Shown here: positions 12,172-60,599 of the stretch, piece after piece
Layout of the letters: every line of letters starts with the position of its first letter
How positions within the stretch are numbered: the first letter of the stretch is position 1
Sequence record: HE978309
Origin: Enterobacteria phage GEC-3S
Direction: 5' to 3' (one strand)
DNA length: 64,000 nt
The notes under the pieces: generated by a model
Database searches by the model: none
Seen by the model: the letters and a program-made list of their open reading frames with translations, nothing else
Told to the model about the DNA's origin: nothing
Translations under genes and position numbers: made by a program

Positions 12172-12807
12172 TCAATCGAATGTAGAAAGCAAATGTTTTG
12201 TTTCTTTCAGTTGTCGTTCAAGATTTTTGCGTTTCTCTTTAAGTTGCATTTTAGCATTATTTCGCTCTCTTGTAACCTCTTTATCAATGCTCTTATTCCA
12301 GTTATCAATATCAGAATAAGTTGGCATACCCAATTCTAGACCTAATGCGGTTGGATGCAGGGTAACAGTCCATAAACCGCTAATCTTCTTAAACAGGTCG
12401 GGGTGTAGTGTACTATCTACATCTTCCGGTGTCAACTCTTTTTCTTCTTTCAGTGGTGGGATCTCGTCATATGGTTCCAGTGCATTTACTTTAATATCAG
12501 ATACCTCATCAAAGAATCCGCGTACATCCGCAGGAAATACACAAGCAATTTCCCAACCGCGATCACGCAGAGAAGTAATATTTTTCACTCCCCCACCATG
12601 TGTGATGATTGATGTGACATTGCCATCAAGGTCCACCGAATTTACGAGAAATGGCTTATCGTCTGTCAGATCATTATAAAACTGTGCTTCGGCTGTAGTC
12701 ATCTCCAGAAACAGATCTCGGATCGGACGACCATCAGGTGCGTTACCTTCCTTGAGAGTATAAAAGCGACTTACGATCCATTTTGGCGGTAAAGCATTAG
12801 CGATCAT
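12172..12807 (-). CDS. hypothetical protein (211 aa)
   Basis: ATG with SD TAGGAGA. Confidence 0.55.
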   Translation of the reverse strand: MIANALPPKWIVSRFYTLKEGNAPDGRPIRDLFLEMTTAEAQFYNDLTDDKPFLVNSVDLDGNVTSIITHGGGVKNITSLRDRGWEIACVFPADVRGFFDEVSDIKVNALEPYDEIPPLKEEKELTPEDVDSTLHPDLFKKISGLWTVTLHPTALGLELGMPTYSDIDNWNKSIDKEVTRERNNAKMQLKEKRKNLERQLKETKHLLSTFD

Positions 12808-29649: not shown

Positions 29650-29908
29650 AAATCGCCCTCAGTTCTTTATAGCCTCCAATGTGCTCGTTGTCAATGAATA
29701 TCTGGGGGTATACATACCGGAGGCTCTTTGAGTTCAGCCTCCCCGCCAGTTCTTCAATCATATCACGGTCGGGAATAATGTCAACCCCGACCTGCTTGAA
29801 TACTGGTTTAAGTGTATACGGAATACCCAGATCATCCAGTAGCTTCATTGCACTAATACAACCATAACAATGATAAGCCTCTTTCGGTATACCGTATATC
29901 TCGATCAT
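29639..29908 (-). CDS. glutaredoxin-like protein (NrdH/NrdC family)
   Basis: 89 aa; CYGC redox motif and C-terminal PQIFID..HIGGY; ATGA overlap with upstream gene. Confidence 0.6.
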   Translation of the reverse strand: MIEIYGIPKEAYHCYGCISAMKLLDDLGIPYTLKPVFKQVGVDIIPDRDMIEELAGRLNSKSLRYVYPQIFIDNEHIGGYKELRAIYDY

Positions 29909-30381
29909 TTCTCAGCCTTTAATCTTTCTAGTTCTTCTTCCAGTTCCTTGATCCGTTGGTCACGTTCAAAGTCACGCTGTAACTTAGTGGCGAATACTCG
30001 TTTAAACTGATTGTAATCATCGATTTTAAACACTTCTTCTTCGCCATAGCGACGCACAGAAACTTCGTAGTTATTGAAGAATTGTTGCATCATTGCTTCG
30101 GATGATAGCTCTGCTGATACCACTTTAAAATATTGATCTTCTGTAGGCGAAAACCAATTACAAGCATAAAGATAAACCTTTTCATTGTCTGGGCACTGGT
30201 AAGCCTTACCATCGATTTCAATCACAGAAACATATTCAGGTATAGTAGATGAATCAATAGCTAAGACTTTAAACTGACGGTCCCCGATAAACTCAGAGAT
30301 CACACGATTCGCATCACTGGTTGCAAAGGCTTTACGCGCTTGTTCGTTTTTCCACTGATAGGTCATACCAACAACAAACAT
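29905..30381 (-). CDS. paralog family A protein (158 aa)
   Basis: start chosen at ATG 30381; N-domain motif GMTYQWK plus C-terminal coiled coil. Confidence 0.45.
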   Translation of the reverse strand: MFVVGMTYQWKNEQARKAFATSDANRVISEFIGDRQFKVLAIDSSTIPEYVSVIEIDGKAYQCPDNEKVYLYACNWFSPTEDQYFKVVSAELSSEAMMQQFFNNYEVSVRRYGEEEVFKIDDYNQFKRVFATKLQRDFERDQRIKELEEELERLKAEK

Positions 30382-30382
30382 A

Positions 30383-31207
30383 TTACCAACCTCGCTCTTT
30401 ACCAATCAAAAATTCAACTTCACGACGTTTAATGTCTTCTTGAAGGTCTTTAATCTTCTGGCGATCTTGCATGATTTCATCCATCTTGTCAAGTGCCGCA
30501 ATGAAATCATCGAAACGTTCAAAGGTTTTACCTTCATTTGCTTCGCCAAATTTAACCATTGTCAGGCCGTAACGACTACTAAACAGACGTTTCAACTGTC
30601 CAACGATTTTAGAATCAGTGGTTATAACTTCCAATTCTTCTACTTCACGAAAGAATTTTCTATCAGAATCAATAAACCAGCTAGTTCCTTTATGGTTACT
30701 ATCTTCGGTTGCACTCATTAGAGTATGGTCTTTACCATCAATTTCAATTACATCAATTTGCCCACATGGACGAACATTTTTAACAGTAAAAGGTCTATAA
30801 TTTATTGCTCGTGCAATAACATAATTAAGATTAGATACGTTTTCAGCATAATGACAGAAGTCGGTCATAGCCTTATCATCTTTCCAAGTATAAGTTTTAC
30901 CAACTTCCCATTTCTGGGGAACTTCTTCAACTTCACGAAAGAATTTTCTATCAAATGGACTAAAGAAATATGTTGCAGTCCAAATGTCTTTTCCTGTAGC
31001 AGTTTTCGCCGTATGATAAACACCGTCTAGCTCTATTGCATCAATCCAACCGTTACCCTCGATCTCGATGATGGTAAATGGCTTGTCACCAATAGCTGCA
31101 CTAATATCGCTGTTAAGTGGAGAAAGAACACCTTCTCCGTTAGTAATAAACTCAGTTTTAGCGTTTACATCTTTCCAAGTGTAAGTTTTACCAATTTCCC
31201 ATTTCAT
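30383..31207 (-). CDS. paralog family A protein with internal tandem duplication (274 aa)
   Basis: ATG with SD AAGGGGA; two copies of W-E-x-GKTYTWKD ... DRKFFREVEE module. Confidence 0.55.
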   Translation of the reverse strand: MKWEIGKTYTWKDVNAKTEFITNGEGVLSPLNSDISAAIGDKPFTIIEIEGNGWIDAIELDGVYHTAKTATGKDIWTATYFFSPFDRKFFREVEEVPQKWEVGKTYTWKDDKAMTDFCHYAENVSNLNYVIARAINYRPFTVKNVRPCGQIDVIEIDGKDHTLMSATEDSNHKGTSWFIDSDRKFFREVEELEVITTDSKIVGQLKRLFSSRYGLTMVKFGEANEGKTFERFDDFIAALDKMDEIMQDRQKIKDLQEDIKRREVEFLIGKERGW

Positions 31208-31219
31208 AATATATTCCCC

Positions 31220-31705
31220 TTAACCGATTTTATCAAGTTCGTTTAATGCTTTCTCAGCTTCCTGTATAGCTTGCACTCTTTCCGGCATTTTGTCAAGAAA
31301 ATCTTTCAACTCTTCAAAACTGGAGATATGACGCAAGGCATTAGCACCGATAGCCGCATGTGATTTGCATTCAAAGCGAATTTTATAATTATCCATAGCC
31401 AATTTGAGAAGGTCTATTAGATCATATTCACGACCAGGCAATAAAACTTCTTTGAAGCACGCTCGGTCGCCATCGGAAAACCATATATTATCACCAACAT
31501 CGATAGAACTAATATAATCCCCTTCGTGATTATAGATTGAACGTACATTACCCCAACGGTCTACAGTAGCGACAGTAAATGGTTTATCTAGATATGTAAA
31601 CACACCATCAATATTAGGTTTTTGTTCGTAACGCCAACAATCACGCAAAATACGCTTTTCGTACTCACCAACCAACTTATATGTCTTCCCTTCTTCCCAT
31701 TTCAT
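31220..31705 (-). CDS. paralog family A protein (161 aa)
   Basis: start chosen at ATG 31705 (MKWEEGKTY...). Confidence 0.5.
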   Translation of the reverse strand: MKWEEGKTYKLVGEYEKRILRDCWRYEQKPNIDGVFTYLDKPFTVATVDRWGNVRSIYNHEGDYISSIDVGDNIWFSDGDRACFKEVLLPGREYDLIDLLKLAMDNYKIRFECKSHAAIGANALRHISSFEELKDFLDKMPERVQAIQEAEKALNELDKIG

Positions 31706-31709
31706 AATA

Positions 31710-32237
31710 TCATCTCTCATTTTTGATACGTGATTCTAATTGGATCATACGGTCGCGCGTTTGCTTATATTCTCGGATATCACCGATCCGGCTAGGCATA
31801 CCATCCAGTACGCTCTTAATCCCTTCTAGGGTAGTGATTTTAGCAATACTATTATGCAATCCCATCTTATCGATTAACTGAATGTCGTAGGCTTCCATAA
31901 GCAGACCCAGACGTTCTAAAGTTAGGTCTTCTTCTTTTTCTTCCGATTCTGGAATCTTAGGTTCAATAGTAACTTCGGTAAAGAAACGACGCTCGCCCGA
32001 CCAAAACCACACACCGGAACAGCCAATAGGGGATTCTTTTAACGTCATAGAGTCGTAACCACTGCCGATAATAGTAATTTCTCTAACATCACCATCATCG
32101 TCAATGTCTTCTACCCTAAACGGGCGACCAGCCAACAGGTCAACAATACATCTGTTAATAGACGACGAAAATTTAGTCAGTTCGGCTTTCGACGCTTCGC
32201 ATTCAATCTTGTAAGTTTTACCAACTTCCCATTCCAT
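31710..32237 (-). CDS. paralog family A protein (175 aa)
   Basis: start at ATG 32237 (MEWEVGKTY...) with SD GAGGTGA. Confidence 0.5.
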   Translation of the reverse strand: MEWEVGKTYKIECEASKAELTKFSSSINRCIVDLLAGRPFRVEDIDDDGDVREITIIGSGYDSMTLKESPIGCSGVWFWSGERRFFTEVTIEPKIPESEEKEEDLTLERLGLLMEAYDIQLIDKMGLHNSIAKITTLEGIKSVLDGMPSRIGDIREYKQTRDRMIQLESRIKNER

Positions 32238-34091: not shown

Positions 34092-34119
34092 ATTATACAT
34101 TAGCTAATCATGTTGTCAA
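34092..34119 (-). promoter_or_regulatory. early promoter (TTGACA-N16-TATAAT)
   Basis: directly downstream of terminator 34137-34156. Confidence 0.5.
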
Positions 34120-34136
34120 CACCCCAAAACGAAAAA

Positions 34137-34156
34137 GCCGACCCTTTCGGATCGGC
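34137..34156 (-). terminator. intrinsic terminator after nrdD
   Basis: GCCGAUCC-GAAA-GGGUCGGC then UUUUUCGUUUU on minus strand. Confidence 0.55.
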
Positions 34157-34162
34157 TGAAAA

Positions 34163-36025
34163 TTACATGTGCTTAACGCGGTTTACCATCTCGGAGTGTT
34201 TCCCGTGGTTGAATGGACGCAGATCAACAGATCCAAGATATCCACTAACGCGACGGATAACATTCATCTTTTCCAGATTGTCATTGCCGCAATCAGGGCA
34301 AACAAAACCAGACTCGGTCGCTCTCATTTCCTTAGTAGATCCGCATACATGACATACATCAGAAGGAGTATTAACACCGAAGTAGTGCAATTTATCCATT
34401 GCATAGTCTACTACAGTTTCAAGACCTTTCAGGTTGTTTTTCATGTCTGGGAACTCAACATAAGAGATCATGCCCCCGGACGCCAGCCAGTGATAATCTT
34501 TCTCAAAGTCGATTTTCTCAAATGGAGTGACTTTCCGGTCTACGTCAAGGTGGAATGAGTTGGTGTACCAGTCTTTATCGGTAGCACCCTTAACAATACC
34601 AAATTGCTCTCGGTCCAGTCGATTAAATCGATAGCAAAGGCTCTCGGCTGGCGTACCGTAAAGACTAAACCCAAGTCCAGTTTCGTCCTTCCATTTTTCA
34701 GTATAATGACGCAAGATCTTAAGAATATGTTTACCGTATCGCTGCGCAACTTCCGAATCAAACGGATGAACACCAAACAGGACGCTCAATACCTCATGTA
34801 AACCAATATATCCAAGAGAGATACTAGCTCGACCATCTTTCAACACTTCCAAAATTTCATCGTTTTGATGAATACGGAAAAATGCACCTTCGGTATACAG
34901 TACAGGAGCAACATTGGCTTTAGCCCCTTTTAAAGCGTCTACGCGACTCATGAGCGCATCAAAGCAAATAGGCAGACGATTAGCTAGCTCTTGTTCGAAT
35001 AGCTCAATTCTGCGCATTACAGACGCTTTACCAGCACGACGCGCGGCAATAAGGGCAATACGCGGAAGATTCAGAGTAACAACACCTAAGTTATTACGTC
35101 CGTCTAATACTTCTTCGCCTTTCTCATTATGCCACACACCCAGGAAGCTACGACAACCCATCGGGCTAACCGGAACACTAGATCCAGTGATACTACGGTT
35201 ATTCTTTGCAGAGATATAATCAGGGTAAAGACGCTTACTAGAACATTCCAATGCAAGTTGCTTAATGTCGTAGTTCGGATCTTCCGGTTTAAGGTTTAAT
35301 CCTTCTTCTAAGAACATCACCAGCTTAGGAAACACCGGAGTGATACCATCTTTACCTAAACCTTTAGTTCGAACTTTCAGGATCGCTTTCTGAATCAGTT
35401 TTTCTTCCCAGCTAGTACCCATACCAAATGTTAAAGTCACAAAAGGTGTTTGACCGTTGGTGGAGAACAAAGTGTTGATTTCATATTCTAACGCTTGATA
35501 CCCGTCTAGCGTTTCTTTTTCTGTCTTCTCTTGTGCATAGAGAGTATCAGCTTTGATTCCGTAGGTTTCGGCATCAGCAAGGTGTTTATGATATGTTTTC
35601 TCAACATACGGTGCTAACACCTGATCGATGTTTGCAATTGTGGTCCCGCCATATTGATGACTTGCCACCTGTGCGATAATTTGAGCGGTTACAGCACAAG
35701 CAACGCCGATTGATTTCGGACTTTCGATTTGTGCGCTACCCAATTTAAAACCATTCTCTAGCATGTCTTTTAGATTAACAAGACAGCAGTTAGTAAACGG
35801 CATAGCGGGTGCATAATCCATATCATGATAATGAATATCACCGTCTACATGCGCTTTATAGATGTGCTCAGGTAACACGGTTTTAGCAATCTGTTTAGAC
35901 ACAGCGCCAGCAATCAGATCTCGACGTGTCGGGAATGTTCGCGCGTCTTTGTTCGCGTTCTCTTTGCTTACTTCGTTTTCTTTACCCGTTGCGATCTCTG
36001 TAATGTCTTTGATTAGTTTTTCCAT
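34163..36025 (-). CDS. nrdD: anaerobic ribonucleoside-triphosphate reductase
   Basis: 620 aa; C-terminal glycyl-radical motif RVSGYLG and zinc ribbon CHVCG...CPDCG; ORF is continuous, no intron. Confidence 0.95.
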   Translation of the reverse strand: MEKLIKDITEIATGKENEVSKENANKDARTFPTRRDLIAGAVSKQIAKTVLPEHIYKAHVDGDIHYHDMDYAPAMPFTNCCLVNLKDMLENGFKLGSAQIESPKSIGVACAVTAQIIAQVASHQYGGTTIANIDQVLAPYVEKTYHKHLADAETYGIKADTLYAQEKTEKETLDGYQALEYEINTLFSTNGQTPFVTLTFGMGTSWEEKLIQKAILKVRTKGLGKDGITPVFPKLVMFLEEGLNLKPEDPNYDIKQLALECSSKRLYPDYISAKNNRSITGSSVPVSPMGCRSFLGVWHNEKGEEVLDGRNNLGVVTLNLPRIALIAARRAGKASVMRRIELFEQELANRLPICFDALMSRVDALKGAKANVAPVLYTEGAFFRIHQNDEILEVLKDGRASISLGYIGLHEVLSVLFGVHPFDSEVAQRYGKHILKILRHYTEKWKDETGLGFSLYGTPAESLCYRFNRLDREQFGIVKGATDKDWYTNSFHLDVDRKVTPFEKIDFEKDYHWLASGGMISYVEFPDMKNNLKGLETVVDYAMDKLHYFGVNTPSDVCHVCGSTKEMRATESGFVCPDCGNDNLEKMNVIRRVSGYLGSVDLRPFNHGKHSEMVNRVKHM

Positions 36026-36070: not shown

Positions 36071-36565
36071 TTATTTTACCAGTTCTGCTAATTCTTTTTC
36101 TTTAGCTTCCAGTTCAGCCTTAAGCTGTTTAATCTCTTGTCGCTTCTTATTAGCGGCTTCTTGCTTACTATTTCGGATAACCTGATCTAGATACAACTCC
36201 CAATCCTGAATATTTTTGATAATATAACCGTCAACATTAATTGGTCGGATATTTAGTACAGCTTCCAGTTTAGTCGCAAAAACTTTAATTGCTGGGGTGA
36301 AGTATTCATATTCGTTATCTTCAAACCAATAACCTAGACTTGCATTATCAATACGAAGACGAAGTTCAAGATCAAGGTCTTTATCTTCGGTGTAAAGATC
36401 TTTCACCTGACCCAGCGAACTAACAACAACTTTAAAACGAATTTTATCTACACCACCAAACACATCAGTAAGTATACCAGCAATTGAGCTATTAGCGCAA
36501 GATTGGTCGCTGAATGCGTCAAGGTTTTCTTTAGTTACAGTATACCAAACATCTTGTACCCACAT
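36071..36565 (-). CDS. hypothetical protein with C-terminal coiled coil (164 aa)
   Basis: ATG with SD GAGAGGATTATATT. Confidence 0.5.
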   Translation of the reverse strand: MWVQDVWYTVTKENLDAFSDQSCANSSIAGILTDVFGGVDKIRFKVVVSSLGQVKDLYTEDKDLDLELRLRIDNASLGYWFEDNEYEYFTPAIKVFATKLEAVLNIRPINVDGYIIKNIQDWELYLDQVIRNSKQEAANKKRQEIKQLKAELEAKEKELAELVK

Positions 36566-36595
36566 AATATAATCCTCTCGTTGTTAAGTGGGAGT

Positions 36596-36623
36596 ATTAT
36601 AGCATACTCCCTTCGCATGTCAA
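36596..36623 (-). promoter_or_regulatory. early promoter (TTGACA-N16-TATAAT); -10 inside GGGAGTA/TACTCCC palindrome
   Basis: minus-strand read. Confidence 0.55.
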
Positions 36624-37798
36624 GCACTAACTTTTTTCTTTACTGCTTTCACCTTCTGGCGAATTGCTCGAATCTCTTCGATCTCTTTTTCAGTATCTTT
36701 AACAATTTCTTTGCGATTCTGAATATCTTTATCGAGATTATCATCAAGTTTAGGCAGCATGTCAATCAAGAACTTTTTAAGGTCTTTCAGGTTGCGAATA
36801 ACAGTACCTTCACCCATTACCGCCACGCCTACACCATCCGGCAGATCACCAAACAGTTTAACCAGTTCAGACAGATGATCATGATCTTCTAGTGCTTCTT
36901 CCGGTTCAGATGGCAGTTCAACAAAGTAATAACGTTCATCATTGCTGATCAGGTGATACCAGCAAAGCCCAAAAGATTTAGGAGTATATTCTACACCACC
37001 AACTTCAACTGCGTCAACACTTCCGAAAGAATCTACTTTAGTTACCTTAAATCCATGTTCCAGCGTTTTAATAATTTCAATAACATGACTGGATACGGTT
37101 TCAGTATTAAACCAATGAGGCAAATTATGTGGATTTGGCTTGTATCGTTCGCCTACTTTAAATCTCTGACCACGCTCTTGCATACGGACATATTCAACTC
37201 GCGTGATTTCCGCGAAGTATTCAAATTCGCTACCGTCAAACAAGCAATTCCATTGATCACAAAAACGATCCGCCTTGACGGTTTCACCTTTCGCGGTGAT
37301 CATGGTAGCTGATCCGTGCAATTCTTCTTCAACTAAAAAGCCATATTCTACAAAATCAACAAGTTTCATGGCTTCTTTGTGCTCTGGGTCATGCTCTCCC
37401 CAGAATCGCTTAAATTCTTGCAAACCTTCTGGGGTAAACGAATAACATTTACCTTTTTCAAAGTAAGTCGGCATTGCATCCTCTTTCTTGTTCATCGCTT
37501 CGTATGCCTCTTTTGAGATACGTTTAAAGTATTTGCGCTCATTGTGCATAATCATAGTAGCCCAATAATAAACGATATCCTCAGCGGAATAAACTACATC
37601 TCCAGCTTCAATAGTAATAACATGACCGTTGTCATCTTTTTCTAATACTTTAAAGCCCTTTTCTACGATTTCAGCAACCCGAATATGACCACGGCGCGAA
37701 GCATCGGTCAGAATAATTGAATAGCGAGAAAAGTCTAGAAACTCATCTTTACCACCTTCACGGAATGCATAGTAATGACCTTCAAAGAATTTAGCCAT
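36620..37798 (-). CDS. paralog family B protein (392 aa, multi-module)
   Basis: ATG with SD; repeated GFKVL...ERKYFKRI-type modules. Confidence 0.55.
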   Translation of the reverse strand: MAKFFEGHYYAFREGGKDEFLDFSRYSIILTDASRRGHIRVAEIVEKGFKVLEKDDNGHVITIEAGDVVYSAEDIVYYWATMIMHNERKYFKRISKEAYEAMNKKEDAMPTYFEKGKCYSFTPEGLQEFKRFWGEHDPEHKEAMKLVDFVEYGFLVEEELHGSATMITAKGETVKADRFCDQWNCLFDGSEFEYFAEITRVEYVRMQERGQRFKVGERYKPNPHNLPHWFNTETVSSHVIEIIKTLEHGFKVTKVDSFGSVDAVEVGGVEYTPKSFGLCWYHLISNDERYYFVELPSEPEEALEDHDHLSELVKLFGDLPDGVGVAVMGEGTVIRNLKDLKKFLIDMLPKLDDNLDKDIQNRKEIVKDTEKEIEEIRAIRQKVKAVKKKVSA

Positions 37799-37829
37799 AA
37801 TATAATCCTCTCGTTGTTTAGATGGGAGT

Positions 37830-37858
37830 ATCTTACTACTCCCGTTTCATCATGTCAA
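37830..37858 (-). promoter_or_regulatory. early promoter (TTGACA-N17-TAAGAT) inside GGGAGTAG/ACTCCC palindrome
   Basis: minus-strand read. Confidence 0.5.
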
Positions 37859-38421
37859 GCGTTAAATGACTTTTGGATCTCTTTCAGTTCAGCTACTTTA
37901 TAGGCGCTGAATTTAGCGTAGGTATCATGTCGAATAATTTCACTTTCAAGAAAGGTTTCCAGCCGAGATCTATTTTCAATAAGGAACTCTTTCAGGTCTT
38001 CCGCGTTCTTGATAAAGATTTTATTGTCAGTAATGTCATCTTCAATCGCAAAGGAGATAGAGCGAACTTTACCAAACAAGTTAATCAGATCTTCCAGAGA
38101 TTCTTCTTTCTTAACTGGTTTCATTTCTTCAAACTGCTTTTTAGTGATGCGTTTAAAGTATTTGCGCTCGTTTGCAGCAATCAGAACAGATGCACCTTCA
38201 TACCCATGAGTTTCTACCAGATACACACGCCCCATCGCATCAACAGTGAGAACTTTAAAGCCGTTACAAAGCACGTCATACAAGAACTTATTATGTTGCG
38301 GACATCGTTTGATAAATTCTGCGGCTGTTTCTGCACTACGGAAAGTATAGTAACGACCTCGTTCAAAAACAGCATCATTTGAAGACTTAGCCGGATACAC
38401 TTTATACATTTTCTGTACCAT
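37855..38421 (-). CDS. paralog family B protein (188 aa)
   Basis: start at ATG 38421 with SD GAGGATTATATT; motif NERKYFKRITKKQFEEM. Confidence 0.5.
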   Translation of the reverse strand: MVQKMYKVYPAKSSNDAVFERGRYYTFRSAETAAEFIKRCPQHNKFLYDVLCNGFKVLTVDAMGRVYLVETHGYEGASVLIAANERKYFKRITKKQFEEMKPVKKEESLEDLINLFGKVRSISFAIEDDITDNKIFIKNAEDLKEFLIENRSRLETFLESEIIRHDTYAKFSAYKVAELKEIQKSFNA

Positions 38422-38435
38422 AATATAATCCTCTA

Positions 38436-38708
38436 TCATTTCACTAATTGAACAGCACGAAACAGAATGCGGTCACACGGAAGCAGCATAAATTCCCAAC
38501 GCGGATCAAAGTCTTTAGCGGTATATGTTTTCCCATCAACCGAGATTTCACTTACATAACCAATAGGTGACACTTTAAGAACAGTAAATCCATTCTTGAT
38601 TGCTTCGTAGGTATCTTTCAGACCTTCGTAGTCGTCCTCTAAGAAGTCTTTATGTGCTTGCTCAGATTTAAAAACATAGGCCACACCGGATTTAAACATC
38701 TTACGCAT
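38436..38708 (-). CDS. paralog family B protein (90 aa)
   Basis: start at ATG 38708 with SD AAGGAGAATCAACA; track extension overlaps promoter. Confidence 0.45.
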   Translation of the reverse strand: MRKMFKSGVAYVFKSEQAHKDFLEDDYEGLKDTYEAIKNGFTVLKVSPIGYVSEISVDGKTYTAKDFDPRWEFMLLPCDRILFRAVQLVK

Positions 38709-38739
38709 TGTTGATTCTCCTTCTTGATTAGATGGGAGC

Positions 38740-38768
38740 ATTTTACTACTCCCATTTCTTATTGTCAA
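38740..38768 (-). promoter_or_regulatory. early promoter (TTGACA-N17-TAAAAT) inside GGGAGTAG/GCTCCC palindrome
   Basis: minus-strand read. Confidence 0.5.
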
Positions 38769-38771
38769 CTA

Positions 38772-39245
38772 CTATCTTAATCTTTGTATGAATTGTTTCT
38801 TATACTTCTTCGTGATTTCTTCTCGTGTATCAGCGTCGCAGTAATCGAAACCTTCTGCGTCCATAATAGCAACCATCTCCGCTCGTGTCAAGCGTGAAAA
38901 TCGTTTTACTTTATCAACAGCATATTGAGGATGTAAATGATTGTTGGTGTAGTCTCCTTTGATGTAATTAACATAGTTTGTAGCCCAAACAACGAAATCA
39001 GCACCTAAAGCACCAACACCAAACCGTTTAAAGTCTCCGGTCAACGATCCTTCTAGGCGGTTGCAACACGAATGAAGCAATCCCCTTACGCGGCCTTGCC
39101 CTTTCCCATCTAGATCGTGGTCGTGGTCAAGATGGTTTTTGCTCATATCCTCAAAAAGTGGCAATTGACAAAGGGGGCAAATGCCCCCCTGTTTTTCGAA
39201 TAGTTCTTGTTTGTACTCTTTAGCACTCTTAGCAGTCAGTAACAT
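38772..39245 (-). CDS. 49: recombination endonuclease VII (Holliday junction resolvase)
   Basis: 157 aa from ATG 39245 with SD GGAGGGTG; zinc site CPLCQ...CCNRLEG and HLDHDHD as in T4 gp49. Confidence 0.85.
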   Translation of the reverse strand: MLLTAKSAKEYKQELFEKQGGICPLCQLPLFEDMSKNHLDHDHDLDGKGQGRVRGLLHSCCNRLEGSLTGDFKRFGVGALGADFVVWATNYVNYIKGDYTNNHLHPQYAVDKVKRFSRLTRAEMVAIMDAEGFDYCDADTREEITKKYKKQFIQRLR

Positions 39246-39269
39246 AAATTCACCCTCCAAAGAAGGTAT

Positions 39270-39552: not shown

Positions 39553-40308
39553 TTATACCTCATTCAGTTCTATATCAAGTTCATTTTCAATAATATAGGC
39601 ATTAACTGCCCGTGCCGCATCATCTTCTGTGTCAAATCTTCCTATATACACACCGCGAACTTTAGCACCGTAATTACCTTGTTTTGGTACTTTGTAAACG
39701 TATCTATGACGGGAACTTGCTGCTTTTTGGAGCTTCTTGCCATATTCAGACTTTGCATATTCTATATCATCAATCTCGTTTATACAAGACCTATCACCAA
39801 AATGTTTCAACGCTGCAAGATTATATGCATACGCCGCACCGATCTCGGAGGGAAAATATCCTAAATGTATAGACTTCCCATCCAACATTATTGCACCAGT
39901 CCAATAACCTTTATTCTTATTAAACGACACACCTTTATACTTCGAATATGTTTTGCATTTGGTCTTGCTCATATTCATATTATTTTGTTTGCTTGTCGTC
40001 TCTCTAAGGTTTTCAATGCGGCTATTATAACGATCTCGGTCTTTATGATCTATATACTTAGGACAATGACCATGAAACATATGATAGATAACACGGTGCA
40101 TACGTTCGTATCGCTCGCCAGTCCATACAATACGATACCCATCGGGGGTATCACTTCCAGCTAATCCGTTTATAACACCTTTTCGGTGCGGGTGAATCTT
40201 CCACCTAAGAAAACCATCATCATAATAAAACCGTGAATGATATAAATCATATAAACGTTTATCTTCTGGAGTCTTGTGTATAACCTCATATTTTAACATT
40301 GGTGACAT
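39553..40308 (-). CDS. HNH homing endonuclease with AP2-type DNA-binding domains
   Basis: 251 aa; HNH core IDHKDRDRYNSRIENLR; two AP2-like segments; overlaps both neighbours. Confidence 0.7.
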   Translation of the reverse strand: MSPMLKYEVIHKTPEDKRLYDLYHSRFYYDDGFLRWKIHPHRKGVINGLAGSDTPDGYRIVWTGERYERMHRVIYHMFHGHCPKYIDHKDRDRYNSRIENLRETTSKQNNMNMSKTKCKTYSKYKGVSFNKNKGYWTGAIMLDGKSIHLGYFPSEIGAAYAYNLAALKHFGDRSCINEIDDIEYAKSEYGKKLQKAASSRHRYVYKVPKQGNYGAKVRGVYIGRFDTEDDAARAVNAYIIENELDIELNEV

Positions 40309-60570: not shown

Positions 60571-60599
60571 ATCTTACTACCCCCGTTTCATGTTGTCAA
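60571..60599 (-). promoter_or_regulatory. early promoter (TTGACA-N17-TAAGAT) inside GGGGGTAG/ACCCCC palindrome
   Basis: minus-strand read. Confidence 0.5.

Follow-up and report, generated by a model that had tools for sequence, protein, structure and literature searches.

What are the three adjacent genes at positions 36,620 to 38,708 of Enterobacteria phage GEC-3S, and how did they come to lie side by side? The 64,000-nucleotide stretch of this phage that we analysed (sequence record HE978309; hereafter the window) carries them on the minus strand, as it does every gene of the region, in the transcription order endonuclease VII, B90, B188, B392, up164 and nrdD, where B392, B188 and B90 stand for proteins of 392, 188 and 90 amino acids (aa) and up164 for a 164-aa gene. 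The original prediction, made from the sequence alone, had taken the three genes as a paralog family with one multi-module member, and had proposed that cassette-mediated duplication produced them. As a whole, the locus is best explained by an expanded family of beta-barrels of the type found in GoF and Frd.2 of phage T4, flanked by promoter-early stem-loops (PeSLs), whose members would serve as accessory binding adaptors; its multi-module proteins would have arisen by intragenic duplication, with recombination adding, removing and swapping genes. We hold this explanation with good confidence.

The three genes are paralogs and B392 is built of three modules

The coordinates given earlier for the three genes were correct, and their relationship was borne out by blastp (E-values with the database size set to 1e6) and by a shared profile, phrog_622, which is the family of T4 GoF. 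In blastp, B392(245-385) aligned with B188(50-188) at E 3e-8 and B392(2-124) with B188(17-127) at E 1e-4, while B90 aligned with one or the other at E 0.003-0.07. B392 was then cut into three pieces of about 100 aa plus the tail, and the pieces were scanned separately against the PHROG profiles. All three modules of B392 (E 6.5e-5, 3.4e-6 and 1.7e-8 for modules 1 to 3), the N-terminus of B188 (E 9.5e-6) and B90 (E 2e-6) matched phrog_622 in register, at profile positions of about 2 to 93. T4 GoF itself (141 aa) belongs to this family with E 4.6e-38.

B392 is indeed a multi-module protein, with three modules of about 95 aa each followed by a tail (borders in Table 1). Self-alignment revealed significant self-similarity: Smith-Waterman z was 10 for module 1 against 2, 16 for 1 against 3 and 6.2 for the remaining pair, the observed scores were reached by 0 of 2000 shuffles, and hhalign gave P 2.8e-5, 8.8e-8 and 1.3e-3 for the same pairs. 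In the same tests the modules showed no similarity to the tail. The tails of B392 and B188 are homologous to each other, the E 3e-8 blastp alignment running through them. The sequence block that had been read in all three genes is real; its literal ending ERKYFKRI, however, is present only in module 1 of B392 and in B188, and is degenerate in B90 (DRILFRAV).

Note that module 2 starts at a methionine, M109, which is invariant in all orthologs and is preceded, 4 nt upstream, by an in-frame Shine-Dalgarno (SD)-like GAGGA (37472-37492, minus strand; AAGAAAGAGGATGCAATG). This is only a hint, either of a relic of a former gene start and gene fusion or of an internal start giving a two-module isoform.

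GEC-3S is an RB49-like member of the Straboviridae. The 3.3-kb region matched 57 phage records at 91-99% identity, all of them Krischvirus (the RB49/phi1/JSE group of T4-type coliphages). The original records of RB49, phi1 and JSE label B392 'frd.2', and RefSeq labels it 'goF mRNA metabolism modulator'. A word-indexed homolog search with B392 returned nothing beyond its orthologs, which are 83-96% identical. The extreme C-terminus of B392 varies by sub-lineage, many relatives aligning only through residue 381, and phage TB34 annotates a longer B392 coding sequence of 421 aa that overlaps up164 (L002 1536-2798).

The family extends across the window and to T4 GoF and Frd.2

A profile built from the window modules only (alignment A1) was matched against T4 proteins. 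It found residues 1-90 of GoF with a probability of 96.8% (E 2.1e-10), residues 2-87 of Frd.2 with 88% (E 3e-6) and, marginally, MotB.1 (31%). In the score matrix, the best in-window partner of Frd.2 was module 3 of B392. By sequence profile, then, the modules and the N-terminal domains of these two T4 proteins, GoF and Frd.2, are homologous.

To delimit the family in the window we used a hidden Markov model (HMM) built from the B modules and the N-terminus of GoF; the genes that follow here were left out of its building. The model found four abutting genes directly downstream of nrdG (the A cluster, 29905-32237, minus strand; genes A1 to A4) with E-values of 2e-18 to 3.5e-6, and PHROG scans confirmed them independently (phrog_5347 plus phrog_622). 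Judged from these profiles, the A cluster is of the same superfamily as family B, and it is probably the other 'paralog family' of the original prediction. The model also found an isolated gene near position 12 kb of the window (g12k). Among the structural matches of the module is a protein labelled 'Dc2' from phage ECD7, which at 211 aa fits that gene in length and PHROG-scale size and may be its ortholog. A divergent fourth gene of the B cluster, up164, is a probable member on weaker evidence than the others: it was reached in the second HMM iteration and also matches phrog_3710, which T4 GoF matches at 8e-12. As delimited from sequence, the family thus comprises at least nine genes with 12 modules in the window, on both sides of the nrdD-nrdG block.

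Beyond the window the family is small. Among 1.84e9 representative proteins searched, only 90 clusters matched at E<=1e-3. Most are proteins of 120-210 aa with one module, and about ten have two. Three modules were found in B392 and in one unrelated 354-aa protein; the three-module protein P0086 had no match in cultured phages. The long proteins among the 90 clusters are partial matches; P0095, the one that was inspected, is a repeat protein with no relation to the GoF family. Searches of Pfam, NCBIfam and PDB sequences with the window proteins and T4 GoF gave no meaningful match. In particular, no window protein reached Pfam PF03197 (FRD2), even at E<=1 for the B cluster and up164 or at E<=0.1 for A1, A2, A4 and g12k, whereas T4 Frd.2 scores 133 bits on this model.

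The predicted fold is a small beta-barrel

Structure prediction gives the module as a small beta-barrel of about 90 residues, in the order beta1, two helices, beta2-beta3-beta4, beta5, which would be SH3-like and nearest to FeoA. The AlphaFold model of B90 (predicted local distance difference test, pLDDT, 92.8; predicted template-modelling score, pTM, 0.83) has strands at 10-13, 41-46, 52-57, 60-63 and 83-86, and fits the bent, five-stranded antiparallel beta-sheet domain (about 80-90 residues) of the GoF/Frd.2/MotB.1 family. In the model of B392 (pLDDT 65.7) the same secondary-structure pattern is repeated three times; the first part of the tail is of low confidence and is followed by a long predicted helix (337-391). 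Only Y11, F41, F83, V43 and G50, which belong to the hydrophobic core, are conserved across the modules. The variable C-terminal domain, joined by a linker, is present in B188 and B392 and absent in B90.

Among predicted viral structures there were 45 matches at E<=1e-3, with TM-scores of 0.7-0.86, one of them annotated as GoF. All the named matches are phage proteins, nearly all from T4-type phages and often several from a single phage, and their hosts include Escherichia, Proteus, Aeromonas, Citrobacter, Morganella, Pectobacterium, Edwardsiella, Klebsiella and Acinetobacter. The modules do not show the Sm/LSm fold proper (Hfq-like, with an N-terminal helix followed by five strands and with Sm/Hfq neighbours), and Hfq and LSm proteins are absent among the structural matches listed.

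Could the similarity be compositional or due to chance, with no real family behind it? The pairwise identities are low (16-33%) and no Pfam or NCBIfam model matches, as this explanation would have it. It is nevertheless refuted by the shuffles, by the independent PHROG profiles that match every module in register and by the window-only profile that finds T4 GoF, and the confidently predicted fold common to 45 phage proteins also speaks against it. We give it next to no probability.

The closest known systems include T4 GoF, T4 Frd.2, FeoA and, in DtxR/IdeR-type regulators, the SH3-like domain (CATH 2.30.30.90). T4 GoF (comC-alpha, 'mRNA metabolism modulator') has an N-terminal barrel of about 90 aa that is homologous to every module described here; after the barrel come, as here, a linker and a short tail of strand and helix. 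Unlike the window proteins it has one module, whereas B392 has three, A2 has two and B90 lacks a tail; its identity to the modules is only about 18-28%; the tail of B392 and B188 is longer, with a helix of about 55 residues; and the rho-suppressor genetics available for GoF have no counterpart in the RB49 group. T4 Frd.2 shares with B392 the label given in RB49, phi1 and JSE as well as the profile match, and differs in being a single module and in belonging to the Pfam family that the window proteins do not reach. Kim et al. (2025, PMC12152347) described GoF, along with MotB.1 and Frd.2, as a family with an 'LSm-like fold'. The domain is the same, and the SH3-like domains of FeoA, IdeR and SloR are the nearest solved structures in both cases, the nearest to GoF being of the FeoA/IdeR type in that paper. 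That study treats single-domain T4 proteins of the Tevenvirinae, mentions neither RB49 nor tandem modules, and includes MotB.1, whose match here is marginal.

Two of the three genes have a PeSL of their own

A strict pattern (TTGACA, a gap, GGGAG, a loop, CTCCC) occurred on the minus strand at 36590-36623, 37824-37858 and 38734-38768, three copies against 0 expected by chance, and a looser scan found about 12 such elements across the window, with promoter scores of 10-12 of 12. Judged from their sequence, the 'promoter-hairpin cassettes' of the original prediction are PeSLs. These were described in phi1 and RB49 as mobile cassettes of an early promoter and a stem-loop, their promoter and terminator activities were demonstrated, and modular shuffling via PeSL x PeSL recombination and excised mini-circles was proposed as their role (Arbiol et al. 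2010, PMC2839356). The elements in the window resemble those of RB49 and phi1 (Arbiol et al. 2010; Comeau et al. 2014) in having a sigma-70 -35/-10 promoter, a stem-loop over the -10 and then an SD and an ATG, in being intergenic and dispersed, and in leaving a hybrid PeSL after excision of the flanked genes. They differ in nothing essential; the crossover in phage KFS-EC (see below) lies inside the stem, not in the AT-rich region.

It had been claimed that each of the three genes is preceded by its own cassette. This holds for B392 and B90 and fails for B188, the third cassette preceding up164 instead. Upstream of B188, which lies directly behind B90, the strict search found no cassette, only a ribosome-binding site (RBS). 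Because B188 has just this common RBS, we place it in one unit behind B90. Its ATG at 38421 is preceded by the standard RBS of the phage, GAGGATTATATTATG, of which the window holds 8 exact copies; for this reason the start at 38439 in the list of open reading frames (ORFs) is probably too long. At 38436-38439 (minus strand) the stop codon of B90 overlaps an in-frame upstream ATG of the B188 frame (ATGA), 18 nt before the start with the canonical RBS, and translational coupling or the use of two starts is possible. Between the genes of the A cluster neither the strict nor the looser scan of the window found a PeSL.

The locus has been reshaped by loss and recombination

Comparison with the related phages revealed what the cassettes can do. 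The match to KFS-EC breaks off precisely at window position 37858, where the PeSL before B392 has its first base; in that phage endonuclease VII abuts B392, and B90-B188 are absent from the whole genome. In the other 55 records the locus is colinear and both genes are present. The apparent match of phage SSG23 in two pieces was merely B188 and B392 merged by tblastn. The KFS-EC junction is a hybrid PeSL, whose 5' half comes from the PeSL of B90 and whose 3' half, from the loop onward, comes from that of B392, the crossover lying within the shared GGGAGTAGTAA stem. Since KFS-EC lacks B90 and B188 and carries a hybrid PeSL at the junction, the event was a PeSL-mediated loss or exchange, not a duplication, and it is a further instance of the published PeSL mechanism. 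The suggestion that the cassettes matter for the evolution of the locus was therefore right, whereas what they are seen to do here is to remove or exchange genes, not to duplicate them.

The paralogs could still have arisen by duplication of gene-plus-cassette units through unequal PeSL recombination, as the original prediction had it. PeSLs flank B392, the B90-B188 unit and up164; recombination between PeSLs is documented at exactly this locus by the KFS-EC junction, and an unequal exchange of this kind would yield a duplication as its reciprocal product; and the mechanism has been proposed for RB49 and phi1 (PMC2839356). Against this, B188 has no cassette, the three local PeSLs do not form a private clade (that of B90 is closest to the PeSLs at 60599 and 52737), and the 57 genomes show one loss only and no duplication product. 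Moreover, the A cluster holds four genes of the same family and no cassettes, and the repeats inside B392 and A2 are intragenic, which makes this route unlikely as the main one.

The modules of B392 are each other's best partners in the score matrix, and so are those of A2. Since modules within one protein match each other best, internal tandem duplication is favoured over cassette shuffling, and the multi-module proteins would have arisen by intragenic tandem duplication. Recombination between PeSLs and between paralogous modules would then add, remove and swap genes. How the paralogs were first duplicated can no longer be read from the sequence, because at identities of 16-33% no DNA similarity between them remains.

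Sequence comparison makes recombination between paralogous modules visible in two cases. In P0062 (L009 3001-3465, a Logan contig of SRR11185258), which directly follows nrdG, A4(1-51) is joined to the C-terminal part of A2 and A3 is deleted. In the A cluster of KFS-EC, A4 is missing and gp207 (L006 1751-2215) is a variant of A3 whose N-terminal module differs.

The locus is, besides, strongly mosaic, with allele exchange apparent in B188. Between the window and phage ELT3 (37855-38421 against L007 2055-2621) B188 is only 79% identical, with a synonymous divergence (dS) of 0.67, while the flanks are 99-100% identical and B392 is 99.7% identical (dS 0.008). The ratio of nonsynonymous to synonymous divergence (dN/dS) is 0.06-0.26 throughout the locus. 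For B188 it is 0.24, which together with the dS of 0.67 rejects positive selection and indicates allele replacement under purifying selection. The divergence forms two patches inside the gene, with the linker around ERKYFKRI conserved, so the PeSLs were rejected as its borders. We also rejected gene conversion as the source of the ERKYFKRI patch, 27 nt of which 25 are identical in B392 and B188: given the shared peptide and the codon usage of the phage, the probability of at least 7 of 9 identical codons is 0.06.

Proposed function of the barrel proteins

What wild-type GoF does has been puzzling since the 1970s; its mutants rescue T4 on rho-defective hosts. As a working model for the window genes, the host sigma-70 RNA polymerase would transcribe them from the PeSL promoters immediately after infection, B90 and B188 presumably as one transcription unit. 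Their products would be non-essential accessory factors that act as binding adaptors in mRNA metabolism or host takeover, each barrel offering a binding surface on the conserved hydrophobic core. The tail helix probably mediates dimerisation, as the dimer band of GoF and the length of the helix suggest. If GoF is a guide, their targets would most likely lie in phage mRNA metabolism, either in the RNA as such or in the machinery of the host for decay or termination.

The model draws on what was reported for GoF, which is made early and in abundance, is not essential and shows up in part as a dimer band on gels. Its D25Y mutant, and not the wild type, stabilises the gene 41 mRNA, a GoF pull-down recovered essentially only GoF itself, and AlphaFold 3 multimers of GoF were not confident (PMC12152347). 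Several of our own observations weigh against the model. Early expression is read solely from the promoter consensus of the sigma-70 PeSLs before B90 and B392. Most members are acidic (net charge -6 to -17), only the module of B188 being basic (pI 9.2), and this acidity, with the negative results for wild-type GoF, makes direct, generic RNA binding uncertain. The B392 model has a pTM of 0.33, so that neither the arrangement of its modules nor the fold of its tail is established. Nor did hhalign of A-cluster against B-cluster tails demonstrate that these are homologous (P 0.01), and when the tails of both clusters, of up164, of g12k and of GoF were compared by a tail HMM and hhalign, no pair reached significance (P >= 0.002).

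Instead of binding RNA, the barrels might be Tudor/KOW-like protein-protein adaptors for the transcription and termination machinery (RNA polymerase, Rho, NusG or the ribosome). The matches underlying this proposal are no stronger than those to other small barrels, the effect of GoF(D25Y) is post-transcriptional, through a longer RNA half-life, and the pull-down brought down essentially no partner of GoF; we consider the proposal rather doubtful. A more elaborate possibility, to which we assign a low probability, is that the 12 or more barrels form a library of binding modules. With the same hydrophobic core and a different surface on each, the barrels would be aimed at different host RNAs or proteins; tandem forms dimerised by the C-terminal helix would make six-barrel, multivalent platforms resembling an Hfq ring; and PeSL exchange together with recombination between paralogs would re-assort the library between phages. 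A role of the modules as FeoA-like accessory proteins for iron handling, with a functional link to the neighbouring genes of the anaerobic ribonucleotide reductase, nrdD and nrdG, is very improbable.

The adaptor model stands as our preferred explanation, and the locus does not overturn current understanding. The PeSLs and the gene family were already published, as was the annotation of the family in RB49; what is new is that some of its proteins are recognised as tandems of two or three barrels, how far the family has expanded in Krischvirus, and the hybrid-PeSL deletion in KFS-EC. The RB49 group, in which barrels occur naturally singly, in pairs and in threes and nine paralogs are under purifying selection, gives more experimental handles than the three single-domain genes of T4. 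The locus also adds a clean new case of cassette loss through PeSLs and of paralogous modules recombining with each other, and documents the reshuffling of accessory genes in T4-type phages.

Positions of the features and neighbouring genes

Table 1. Family members, modules, PeSLs and flanking genes in the window
Feature	Positions	Strand	Evidence
Isolated member, 211 aa, one module and tail	12175-12807	-	HMM E 8.8e-5; phrog_16187
A1 (A cluster)	29905-30381	-	HMM, phrog_5347 + phrog_622
A2 (A cluster), 274 aa, two modules 50% identical	30383-31207	-	HMM, phrog_5347 + phrog_622
A3 (A cluster)	31220-31705	-	HMM, phrog_5347 + phrog_622
A4 (A cluster)	31710-32237	-	HMM, phrog_5347 + phrog_622
nrdD	34163-36025	-	last in transcription order of the region
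up164, probable divergent fourth member of the B cluster, module aa 1-94 and coiled-coil-like tail	36071-36565	-	second-iteration HMM E 1e-5
PeSL before up164, 12/12 match to the sigma-70 consensus	36566-36623	-	pattern search
B392, three predicted GoF/Frd.2-like beta-barrel modules and C-terminal tail	36620-37798	-	ORF; phrog_8944 E 5.6e-210; three stretches on phrog_622
B392 C-terminal tail (aa 303-392)	36620-36892	-	homologous to B188 tail
B392 module 3 (aa 208-302)	36893-37177	-	phrog_622; hhalign vs module 1
B392 module 2 (aa 109-206)	37181-37474	-	phrog_622; hhalign vs module 1; starts at M109
B392 module 1 (aa 1-100)	37499-37798	-	phrog_622; Smith-Waterman vs modules 3 and 2
PeSL before B392: TTGACA, 17 nt, TAAGAT; -10 in loop of GGGAGTA/TACTCCC; then SD, ATG	37799-37858	-	pattern search
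B188, one module (aa 14-100, 38122-38382) and tail	37855-38421	-	ORF, PHROG, blastp
B90, single bare module without tail	38436-38708	-	phrog_16115 E 1e-62; phrog_622
PeSL before B90: TTGACA, 17 nt, TAAAAT, in loop of ATGGGAGTA/TGCTCCCAT	38709-38768	-	pattern search
Endonuclease VII	38772-39260	-	first in transcription order of the region

Two further features were observed near the locus. A 251-aa gene resembling homing endonucleases (HNH_3 and AP2) lies between nrdC and dam (39553-40308, minus strand). Phages MIZ6, SSG23 and KFS-EC lack it at that position, the methyltransferase following directly after nrdC, and the gene is probably a mobile insertion. Just downstream of nrdD (34092-34157, minus strand) a strong intrinsic terminator, made of a 9-bp stem and a T run, stands immediately before a perfect TTGACA-16-TATAAT promoter, a layout unlike that of the PeSLs.

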